Assembly (NCBI GenBank): GCA_001001485.1
Contig: LCKO01000010.1
Location: 1 to 58,386, forward strand
Length of the DNA stretch: 58,386 bases
Source of the DNA: Candidatus Collierbacteria bacterium GW2011_GWB2_45_17
Lineage (GTDB): Bacteria; Patescibacteriota; Microgenomatia; UBA1400; MFAQ01
Reading direction: 5' to 3'
Positions 43,517 to 44,578 of this stretch are shown one piece after another; positions within the stretch are counted from its first letter, which is position 1; the number at the start of each line of letters is the position of its first letter. The notes below the pieces were generated by a model, which saw only the letters and a list, made by a program, of their open reading frames with translations, searched no databases and was not told the DNA's origin. The position numbers were made by a program, and so were the translations under genes.

Positions 43517-44578
43517 ATGGTGGATCAGGCAAAACTATGGATTCGGGCAGGTAATGGCGGTAACGGCGCGGTTAGTTTCCGGCGAGAAAAATTTATCCCC
43601 AAAGGCGGTCCGGATGGTGGCGATGGCGGTAAAGGGGGAGATATTTACCTGGAAACAGATACCAATATGAATACTTTAGATGATTTTGCTCACCGGCAGA
43701 AATTTGAAGCAGAAAATGGCGGTAAGGGCATGGGCAAAAAGATGTCTGGGGCCAAAGGAGATGATTTGATAATCAAGGTGCCACTGGGGACGGTGGTGGG
43801 CCTGCAAGGCCAGGCCTTGCAGGTTGAAAACGGGCAGACACAGGGGTCTGCCCCTACGGTAGTTGATTTTGATCGGAAGGGGATGAGGGTGTTGGTGGCT
43901 AAAGGAGGCAAGGGTGGCCGAGGGAATGAACATTTTAAGAGTGCCAGTAACACGACCCCGATGACGGCGGAGCCGGGCGAGATGGGCGAGCGTTACGACG
44001 TAGAAATGTCGCTGAAACTTTTGGCCGATGTCGGGCTCGTGGGTCTACCAAACGCGGGGAAGTCAACTTTGTTGTCTGTTTTGTCGAACGCTCGACCTAA
44101 AGTAGCCGATTATGAATTTACGACTCTTGAGCCAAATTTGGGTGTCCTGAAGACCCAGGGAAAAAACTTGGTGATCGCCGATATACCCGGGTTGATTGAA
44201 GGTGCGAGCGAGGGAAAAGGATTGGGGACAAAGTTTTTGAAGCACATTGAAAGAACAAAAGTGATCATTCATTTGGTGGCGGTGGAAGACCTGCAGGGCC
44301 AGGCCTTGCAGATTGGGGATTCTATAAGGCCTGGCCCTGCAGGTGTCACGGTGTGGGAGAATTATCAAAAAATCAGAAAAGAATTAAAAAATTATGGCGG
44401 CGAGATTGATAAAAAAGAGGAAATTGTGGTGCTTAGTAAAATTGATTTAGTTAGTGAAGATAATATAAAAGAAATGGTGGAATATTTTAAGAAAAAAAAG
44501 ATTGATATCTTACCGATCTCGAGCGGCAATGGTCAGGGGTTGGCAGAACTGAAGCTAAAACTCAGCGACATTCGTTGA
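43517..44578 (+). CDS. obgE: GTPase Obg/CgtA carrying REP-A insertions
   Basis: 353 aa. Glycine-rich Obg fold ([33 protein letters not shown]), G1 [10 protein letters not shown]3 [10 protein letters not shown]4 SKID. Confidence 0.9.
43801..43823. repeat. REP-A variant copy inside the obgE Obg-fold domain
   Basis: CCTGCAAGGCCAGGCCTTGCAGG (compensated variant), translated GLQGQALQV. Confidence 0.9.
44290..44343. repeat. REP-A dimer inside the obgE GTPase domain
   Basis: CCTGCAGGGCCAGGCCTTGCAGA-ttggggat-TCTATAAGGCCTGGCCCTGCAGG (54 nt), translated [20 protein letters not shown]. Confidence 0.85.

Follow-up and report, generated by a model that had tools for sequence, protein, structure and literature searches.

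The obg gene of an ultra-small groundwater bacterium raises the question of how short palindromic DNA repeats come to lie, in frame, within the coding regions of conserved proteins. The DNA in question, hereafter the window, is a single contig of 58,386 nucleotides (LCKO01000010.1, assembly GCA_001001485.1) from Candidatus Collierbacteria bacterium GW2011_GWB2_45_17, a member of the candidate phyla radiation (CPR), and these 58 kb constitute all that was examined of this genome. Its intact obg open reading frame (ORF; 43517-44578, plus strand) encodes the 353-aa GTPase Obg/CgtA and contains three hairpin elements. With a probability of about three in four, we consider these and comparable inserts in other genes to be mobile copies of repetitive extragenic palindromes (REPs), occurring as singlets or as inverted doublets (REPINs), that belong to at least two resident REP-transposase systems. 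An earlier model-made reading of the window (the sequence-only reading) had pointed out in-frame REPs in the genes for Obg, RadA, an FkbM-family methyltransferase and two proteins resembling REP-associated tyrosine transposases (RAYTs), and this observation is confirmed here. The closest Obg matches are from Collierbacteria or other Microgenomates, and the RadA of the window shares 99% identity with its counterpart in Candidatus Collierbacteria bacterium GW2011_GWA1_45_15.

Searches with the Obg protein recovered the Pfam domains GTP1_OBG (1.6e-52) and MMR_HSR1 (7e-26), and comparison with Bacillus subtilis Obg (1LNZ) yielded E = 4.8e-86. Both the Obg-fold domain and the G domain with its motifs were confirmed by Pfam, by alignments to the structures 1LNZ and 5M04, by the pattern of invariant columns and by a fold search. 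All 72 of the 72 columns that are invariant across 114 Obg homologs are present in the window protein, in keeping with the prior claim that the conserved motifs around the inserts are intact; the G4 motif in this lineage takes the form SKID rather than NKxD. The first of the three elements, in the Obg-fold domain (site 1), is a monomer of the family termed REP-A (43801-43823, plus strand), a perfect palindrome, CCTGCAAGGCCAGGCCTTGCAGG, with an 11-bp stem of the CCTGCAAGG..CCTTGCAGG subfamily, which is read as GLQGQALQV (repeat part LQGQALQ). A second hairpin at site 1, GGGCAGACACAGGGGTCTGCCCCTAC, which the sequence-only reading had missed, starts nine bases past this monomer (43832-43857, plus strand; read as GQTQGSAPT). 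It is unlike REP-A and has the form GGGCAGAC-ACAGGG-GTCTGCCC followed by CTAC, i.e. a GTAG tag on the other strand; its relatives are found at both Obg sites of the locus L006, with compensated stems. The third element, a REPIN, belongs to the G domain, where it lies past the HLV strand and before the helix that follows (site 2; 44290-44344, plus strand); it is formed by inverted REP-A units (44290-44312 and 44322-44344) around a 9-nt spacer and measures 54 nt overall. As single-stranded DNA it is predicted to form a perfect 19-bp stem at -26.1 kcal/mol, against -10.6 ± 2.3 for shuffled versions (z = -6.7). The monomer and this 54-nt dimer are the two in-frame copies that had been attributed to obg, and both were located there.

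An AlphaFold model of the protein, built on 114 homologs in place of an earlier model from 26 sequences that was too weak (mean predicted local distance difference test score, pLDDT, 65), has a mean pLDDT of 78.7 and finds its best PDB matches in 5M04 and 1LNZ (E about 1e-35). Values of pLDDT below 50 are confined to residues 101-109 and 264-269, which are the two inserts, and to the two switch regions. Both inserts are modeled as coil between conserved strands and helices, and are thus predicted to occupy loops, as had been expected of them.

Across the window REP-A is a 23-nt palindrome, CCTGCARGGCCWGGCCYTGCAGG, represented by 16 units at 12 sites. Its 21-nt core, with up to three mismatches allowed, gave 23 matches (both strands summed) at 13 places, and none in 100 dinucleotide-preserving shuffles of the window. 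REP-B, CCTGCGAGGACAGTCCTCGCAGG, is a sister palindrome with five units, each at its own site. Like the repeats of REP systems, both are dispersed, short, GC-rich palindromes. A third family, REP-C, is defined by CCTCCCCTTGACAGGGGAGG, and further hairpin families comprise GTAG-tagged hairpins, two families of 34-40 nt and an 8-nt tandem repeat; searches of Rfam recovered no family matching these hairpins. The window has four inverted doublets, whose stems measure 13-19 bp and whose z scores, in folding against shuffles, are -3.8 to -7.4. As many as 13 of the 21 REP-A and REP-B units lie within ORFs having Pfam or ortholog support, so that the copies are not essentially extragenic, as those of REP systems are. 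The REP-A copies outside genes include a master-type one at 4783-4805 (no strand assigned), one at 17186-17208 and one at 38225-38247. The last was initially placed inside a sortase ORF, an assignment rejected on finding that it sits upstream of the probable sortase start. The three reading frames of REP-A give LQGQALQ, PAGPGPAG and C/DRARP. The sequence-only reading held that the same three peptides arise in both orientations; the three frames stand, but the peptides are not identical, the orientations differing at the central residue (Q/L in one frame and R/W in another). With respect to terminal tags, CTAC follows the hairpin 43832-43857, CGTCAT... is seen on minus-strand copies of the two 34-40-nt families (D14 and D16), and neither REP-A, REP-B nor REP-C has one; GTAG is confined to the hairpin 43832-43857 and a few others.

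Two RAYT-like genes adjoin these repeats. RAYT1 (12296-12970, plus strand) has a perfect REP-A copy on either side (12242-12264 and 12980-13002), and RAYT2 (26547-27227, minus strand) has a REP-B upstream (27264-27286). Their products are paralogs of 224-226 aa that match Y1_Tnp above the Pfam cutoff and possess the HUH motif NHFHF and the tyrosine motif YIHRNP. The arrangement of a Y1 gene flanked by REPs is that of RAYTs, and it recurs in other Collierbacteria genomes. Each gene additionally holds its own REP twice, once before the HUH strand and once directly after YIHRNP, and the same is seen in other species; the internal copies include REP-A at 12445-12467 (SLQGQALQA) and 12752-12774 (PAGPGPAG) in RAYT1, and REP-B at 27047-27069 (LRGLSSQ) in RAYT2. 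These in-frame copies had been reported in both Y1_Tnp genes by the sequence-only reading, which took them for insertions.

For the internal copies, 88 homologs (56-95% identical) that allowed both sites to be placed were studied. A single stretch of 18 nt, read in two different frames, can encode both the site 1 heptapeptide and a site 2 hexapeptide in 77 of these 88 (e.g. LQGQALQ/AGPGPA, LQGLALK/SRPGLE, LRGLTLK/TRSHLE and LRGLSSQ/YEDSPR), as against 67 of 259 pairs made by permutation and 0 of 88 scrambled ones. The sharing of 18 nt between two frames indicates a constraint on the DNA hairpin and not on the peptides. From this comparison, the REPs inside the transposase genes are hence an ancestral and co-evolving part of the family and not sporadic insertions; the earlier description holds as regards their frame, but what it took for insertion is a conserved family feature. 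To our knowledge, transposase genes with two embedded REPs of their own have not been described.

Comparison of Obg across homologs shows how the two sites vary. In an alignment of 26 homologs, three proteins of 329-331 aa (P0050, P0067 and P0093) have neither segment, and the B. subtilis and Escherichia coli proteins (1LNZ and 5M04) show gaps at both sites, some 12 residues long at the first and 15 at the second. Among 120 homologs, the site 2 loop is 12-13 aa long in about 80, and 15-41 aa long in those with peptides derived from REPs or other repeats. Both sites are therefore lineage-specific insertions as judged from these alignments, which is what the sequence-only reading had proposed. 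Their turnover is visible at close range in L001 and L002, two loci from other metagenomes, which differ from the window at five single positions over 3.5 kb and at eight over about 3.0 kb, respectively. Both also differ from it in an 86-nt patch (44257-44342) by about 12 substitutions and a 27-nt length difference, with a decayed monomer (DLQSQALQGES) at site 2 in place of the window's doublet, a polymorphism of the kind that had been anticipated between populations. The flank of this patch in the window resembles the allele of the more distant L003, and the patch looks like a short recombination tract that would have carried the element with it. Four assemblies of the same strain (L008-L011) were uninformative regarding REP polymorphism, being near-identical to the window (99.7-100% across its positions 7.8-29.7 kb, with the exception of scaffold gaps, one 47-nt indel and a deletion in radA).

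Among further relatives, site 2 is a perfect REP-A monomer in L003, a doublet in L072 and L074 (Obg 71% and 64% identical, respectively), and an unrelated GTAG-tagged hairpin, GGGCGGGAAGACCCCGCCCCTAC, in L006. The stems of the L072 doublet are compensated (CCTTCAAGG..CCTTGAAGG), and a compensatory stem change, CAAGG..CCTTG, is also present in the window. In L073 a direct dimer of REP-A occupies site 1 rather than site 2; of REP-A, L006 retains at site 1 only CCTGCAGG, i.e. its joined ends; and L003 has no REP-A there and instead shows three copies of an 8-nt repeat. Because different repeat families, in different states, occupy the same sites among relatives, the Obg loops seem from these alleles to have been hit repeatedly and independently, and the hairpins within them also to shrink and decay. 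Intragenic copies match the dispersed intergenic ones at 20-23 of 23 nt, with the flanking coding DNA diverged by 10-20%. All the alleles seen are full-length ORFs, and the indels at REP sites are all multiples of three (27 nt net against L001, comprising 24 + 3; 39 against L003; 33 in radA). The REPINs have stops in two to four of their six frames, yet are always placed in an open frame. These kept frames support translation, and the insert peptides are accordingly likely to be made.

Comparable inserts occur in other genes of the window. The radA/sms ORF (17942-19354, minus strand; Pfam AAA_25, Zn_ribbon_LapB and ChlI) harbors a REP-B (18858-18882, minus strand), read as RLQGLSSQA, and, directly after the Walker A motif, a REP-C (18954-18979, minus strand; LQPPLSRGGGQQAGG), read as QPPLSRGGG, both of them already recognized as in-frame copies. 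REP-C lies within a net insertion of 11 codons relative to homologs of 433-437 aa, which do not have this segment, and of 33 nt net relative to L012; a third difference from the same homologs is a low-complexity insert. At the REP-B, RLQGLSSQADH in the window corresponds to RLSAKGNDH in homologs, a net gain of about two amino acids, and decayed orthologous copies are found in species with RadA 82-93% identical. As a tracer, 6-mers shared between 120 Obg and 120 RadA homologs proved unsuitable, none of them being repeat-derived, because different families and frames have hit each gene; targeted peptide patterns took their place in the survey of homologs.

The FkbM-family methyltransferase gene (41368-42225, plus strand; Pfam Methyltransf_21) contains the two in-frame dimers that had been assigned to it (41509-41563 and 42052-42112), one of which is read as DRARPYRGFNPSRPGPAG. 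They use two further frames, and the gene also has two runs of the 8-nt repeat. Orthologs from four lineages have four different repeat families at the first site, and at the REPIN positions orthologs display other repeats or nothing. The expectation that the RadA segments, too, would be lineage-specific is thus borne out for the radA REP-C, and the FkbM sites behave alike. All these genes had been called essential housekeeping genes; in model bacteria this is true of Obg, but not of RadA, FkbM or RAYT. A further REPIN (57224-57278, minus strand), read as LQGQALKGTNPQGLALQG, is found in the ORF 57057-57590 (minus strand). This ORF has only a SAM-like N-terminal domain of the integrase/XerC/D type, followed by the REPIN and a low-complexity tail, with no space for a catalytic domain before the next gene, and may be what is left of a recombinase cut short at the REPIN.

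The alleles described above are unlikely to owe their repeats to misassembly. Independent projects have yielded 18 contigs with the exact Obg protein and 13 with the RadA allele, and identical REP-bearing alleles were recovered from ENA, JGI, NCBI and Logan assemblies. Since the same Obg and RadA alleles recur on 13-18 independent contigs, the repeats are not assembly chimeras, which was the alternative that the sequence-only reading had itself raised. Many exact REP-A copies are also found in metagenome-assembled genomes labelled 'uncultured Pseudomonadales bacterium' (L016, L018, L022-L025, L050 and others), which are probably mislabelled CPR genomes, or else the system has been transferred.

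Two short deletions are private to this contig, one at the 5' end of radA and the other at the 3' end of the 5S rRNA gene, at a REP-B. In the former, 56 nt (GATGCCCAAATCC...GAATTTGCCA) near 19271, present in four otherwise identical assemblies, are absent from the window; the deletion is bounded by GCCCA and GCCA, removes the annotated start and the first zinc-ribbon CxxC, and puts the N-terminal part into a different frame; it is a genuine variant or else an error in the contig. In the latter, two REP-B copies (631-653 and 805-827, within 629-829, plus strand) bracket a 5S rRNA gene that starts at 708 (window stretch 708-829; Rfam 49.7 bits). The gene is identical to the 5S of related Collierbacteria up to ...CTGATTGCG, after which REP-B follows directly; nowhere in the window are the 20 nt that canonically end the gene (AAAGTAGATCATCGCCGGGC) or the terminator present, and at the orthologous L102 locus the REP-B lies 67 nt further downstream. 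The truncation looks like a deletion between two TGCGA motifs, ending at the REP. The two private deletions point either to harm that these elements may do or to local errors in the contig. An assignment of this REP-B pair to the interior of an ORF (618-968) was rejected, as that ORF overlaps the 5S gene, and the pair is counted as intergenic. A length difference of another kind is seen in L009, which has 47 extra nt (4398-4444) relative to position 24845 of the window, inside a 1258-aa ORF, in an assembly that is otherwise identical; this could be either a non-REP length polymorphism or an assembly difference.

The remaining repeats of the window comprise two families of palindromes of the CGTC type (34-40 nt), whose minus-strand copies start with CGTCAT... 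and which have no associated transposase in the window. The first is found at 9080-9118, 22230-22268, 22919-22957, 38182-38220, 57690-57728 and 58163-58198, and the second at 7180-7216, 21246-21282, 39866-39952 and 40387-40423; part of these copies are in frame in a P-type ATPase, in the conserved 1258-aa ORF and in a DUF4012 protein. The 8-nt tandem repeat (AAGAACTC/AAGGAATC) occurs at 41060-41121, 41248-41293, 41460-41505 and 41725-41786, on the opposite strand of the DUF4012 ORF (39983-41344) and in frame in the FkbM gene (ELKELKESRTQEIK and NQELKNSRNQGIK). Runs related to it are in frame in the Obg of relatives (KTQKIKNSKIQ, and three copies of TCAGTTCT in L003), and three units of it preserve the frame. 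Apart from the repeats, the ORF 45233-51049 encodes a 1938-aa repeat-rich protein of surface type that contains, near its N-terminus, an intein/Hint domain (about 50021-50878, minus strand; residues 58-343, CITGDS...VAHNT; Pfam Intein_splicing, 64.6 bits). Such a protein is an unusual intein host, and the domain may be a bacterial intein-like domain.

The above observations suggest a mechanism in which a Y1/HUH transposase of the IS200/RAYT type, RAYT1 for REP-A and RAYT2 for REP-B, would recognise the hairpin on single-stranded DNA and copy or move it. In a genome with dense coding and scarce intergenic space many of the insertions would fall into genes, and selection would retain only those that preserve the frame, are free of stops and lie in tolerant loops. 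The survivors would be translated as short, flexible loop extensions rich in Gly, Pro, Gln, Ala and Leu, probably near-neutral in having little or no functional effect. The same permissive loops could be hit again by different families, and those already holding a hairpin might attract more, with short recombination tracts reshuffling the alleles and the hairpins decaying or shrinking over time.

Several points weigh against this interpretation. A clean empty site for REP-A was not found among the loci compared, and the CCTGCAGG of L006 looks more like the outcome of a 15-nt internal deletion than like a pre-insertion site. The REP-B of radA, given its net gain of about two residues and its decayed counterparts in related species, seems to be old and not a simple 23-nt insertion. 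The match of the transposases to the NCBIfam family REP_Tyr_transpos (NF047646) amounts to 43 bits against a cutoff of 80 and covers profile positions 44-132 only, which leaves them outside the curated RAYT family; furthermore, the flanks of REP-A and REP-B are variable and have no GTAG, the tag that defines classical RAYT substrates. It is because of this score below the cutoff and of these untagged repeats that the proteins are called RAYT-like. An attempt to link the presence of REP-A to that of RAYT1 failed, as L012/L102 has REP-A without a syntenic RAYT1. Selection of the REP-A and REP-B monomers for six open frames was dropped as an idea, given that random GC-rich 23-nt palindromes share this trait of the monomers in 65% of cases. 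Lastly, the case for the production of insert peptides comes from the maintained frames.

These difficulties have to be set against those of the other explanations. The palindromes might be kept for a function of the host, for instance as mRNA hairpins that pace translation or stabilise transcripts, as recombination hot spots, or as DNA uptake signals of the kind known as USS (uptake signal sequences) or DUS (DNA uptake sequences), which coding regions tolerate. The preservation of intragenic stems by compensatory changes, the centering of the short recombination tract on the Obg REPIN and the retention of two internal REPs in RAYT genes across at least 88 homologs, pointing to constraint at the DNA or RNA level, would all agree with such a function. 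We nevertheless regard it as unlikely, because close relatives have unrelated families or nothing in the same loop, so that no particular sequence appears to be required there, and many copies are decaying (as in L001, and in radA of L012); moreover, the elements flank transposase genes in the manner of selfish REPs, and one REP-B is found at the point where a 5S rRNA gene is cut short. Somewhat less probable still is the notion that the inserts are old, vertically inherited loops of particular lineages, with no current or recent mobility and with their likeness to the repeats being secondary. It would be in line with the ancestry of the internal RAYT copies, with the decayed radA REP-B at the same position in species whose RadA is 82-93% identical, and with peptides derived from REP-A at site 2 of Obg proteins that are only 64-71% identical. 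It is difficult to reconcile, however, with near-identical strains that differ at this very site, with closer relatives that do not have what distant ones have or that show other families at the same spot, and with intragenic copies that remain at 20-23 of 23 nt like their intergenic counterparts while their flanks have diverged by 10-20%.

The inserts could also be present in the gene and absent from the protein, either because ribosomes bypass them, as happens in T4 gene 60 and at the GC-rich 'byp' elements in mitochondria of Magnusiomyces, or because they are removed from the RNA. A very stable hairpin within an ORF (19-bp stem) is reminiscent of such cases, and translation is deduced from the frames; but bypassing imposes neither a kept, stop-free frame nor indels in multiples of three, and the consistent occurrence of both makes this explanation very improbable. 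That the repeats reflect an artefact of assembly or binning, with chimeras induced by repeats, is scarcely credible in the light of intact ORFs and of identical alleles in many independent assemblies, despite the two private short deletions of the contig in radA and 5S. Mobility of the palindromes under resident REP-transposase systems hence remains our preferred explanation. Considerably more tentative is an extension of it, according to which the main habitat of these systems in Collierbacteria and related Microgenomates would have moved from intergenic DNA into protein loops. In such a case the transposase gene might be built around its own substrate, its internal copies serving as protected masters that seed the genome or as autoregulatory sites in the gene or its mRNA, and loops of the Obg type might be recurrent landing pads.

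With these results, the CPR joins the groups in which selfish hairpins have colonised proteins in frame. The occurrence of such inserts in tiny genomes with scarce intergenic space suggests that compaction drives the elements into coding loops. Alignments of Obg and RadA, as CPR markers, contain repeat-derived, recombining segments that should be masked in annotation and phylogenomics, and the inserts offer natural maps of insertion tolerance for conserved proteins. The transposases that embed their own REPs provide a testable handle on the long-term matching of REPs and transposases, an open question in the REPIN-RAYT field.

With respect to known systems, the phenomenon is already known in kind from Rickettsia and a few other bacteria, and is unusually dense here. 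The nearest precedent is the survey of Di Nocera, De Gregorio and Rocco (2013, BMC Genomics 14:522; PMC3733652), who described GTAG/CGTC REPs, both single and as head-to-head dimers, inside uvrA, dnaE, recB, a tRNA synthetase gene and others, many of them repair and replication genes, in Opitutus, Thauera, Xanthomonas, Stenotrophomonas, Rickettsia and similar hosts. Those inserts, sometimes two per gene, are tolerated; they code for as many as about 20-30 aa and were proposed to lie in linkers or loops, with most copies being intergenic. Intragenic REPs being thus on record in several phyla, the phenomenon is less rare than the sequence-only reading had it. The likeness consists in REP singles and dimers wholly inside ORFs of more than 120 aa that encode known proteins; here, in contrast, at least half of the REP-A and REP-B units are in ORFs, both families are untagged, the host belongs to the CPR and several families occupy the same loops.

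The Rickettsia palindromic elements (RPEs), which the inserts had been said to mirror, were about 150 bp as first reported and form ten families in an alphaproteobacterial genus (Ogata et al. 2000, summarised in PMC10969869). The comparison is apt in that both are selfish palindromes found in frame in unrelated genes at fold-compatible positions; it does not extend to element size and adjacent transposases. The elements of the Collierbacterium are set apart by their size, a REP having 23 nt and a REPIN about 54 nt, and by their host, and each of the families REP-A and REP-B adjoins a Y1 transposase gene, whereas no dedicated transposase of RPEs is known to us. Other small non-autonomous elements, such as ERIC, QMITE1 of Coxiella and the MITEs (miniature transposable elements with inverted repeats) of Anabaena, likewise make translational fusions or insertions in host ORFs (PMC10969869). 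They share with the present elements this location within host ORFs, but have terminal inverted repeats and target-site duplications, are usually longer than 100 bp, and are not simple hairpins linked to Y1 transposases.

The REPIN-RAYT systems of Pseudomonas and Enterobacteria resemble the present one in their inverted doublets that form long hairpins, their REP-flanked IS200/RAYT-type gene and their singlets that look like doublet remnants. In P. fluorescens SBW25, 14 of 1,067 REP 16-mers overlap genes (Bertels and Rainey 2011, PMC3116915), as against 13 of 21 units here, where the transposase genes also contain two REPs of their own and score below the NCBIfam RAYT cutoff. Literature joining the terms RAYT, REPIN, REP or MITE with CPR names, searched by titles, abstracts and term counts, yielded no report of REPs in CPR genes, which is absence of evidence only. 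Thus, when set beside these systems, the CPR host, the high intragenic fraction, the untagged REP families with Y1 partners, the stacking of families in the same loops and the transposases that embed their own REPs appear to be undescribed so far.

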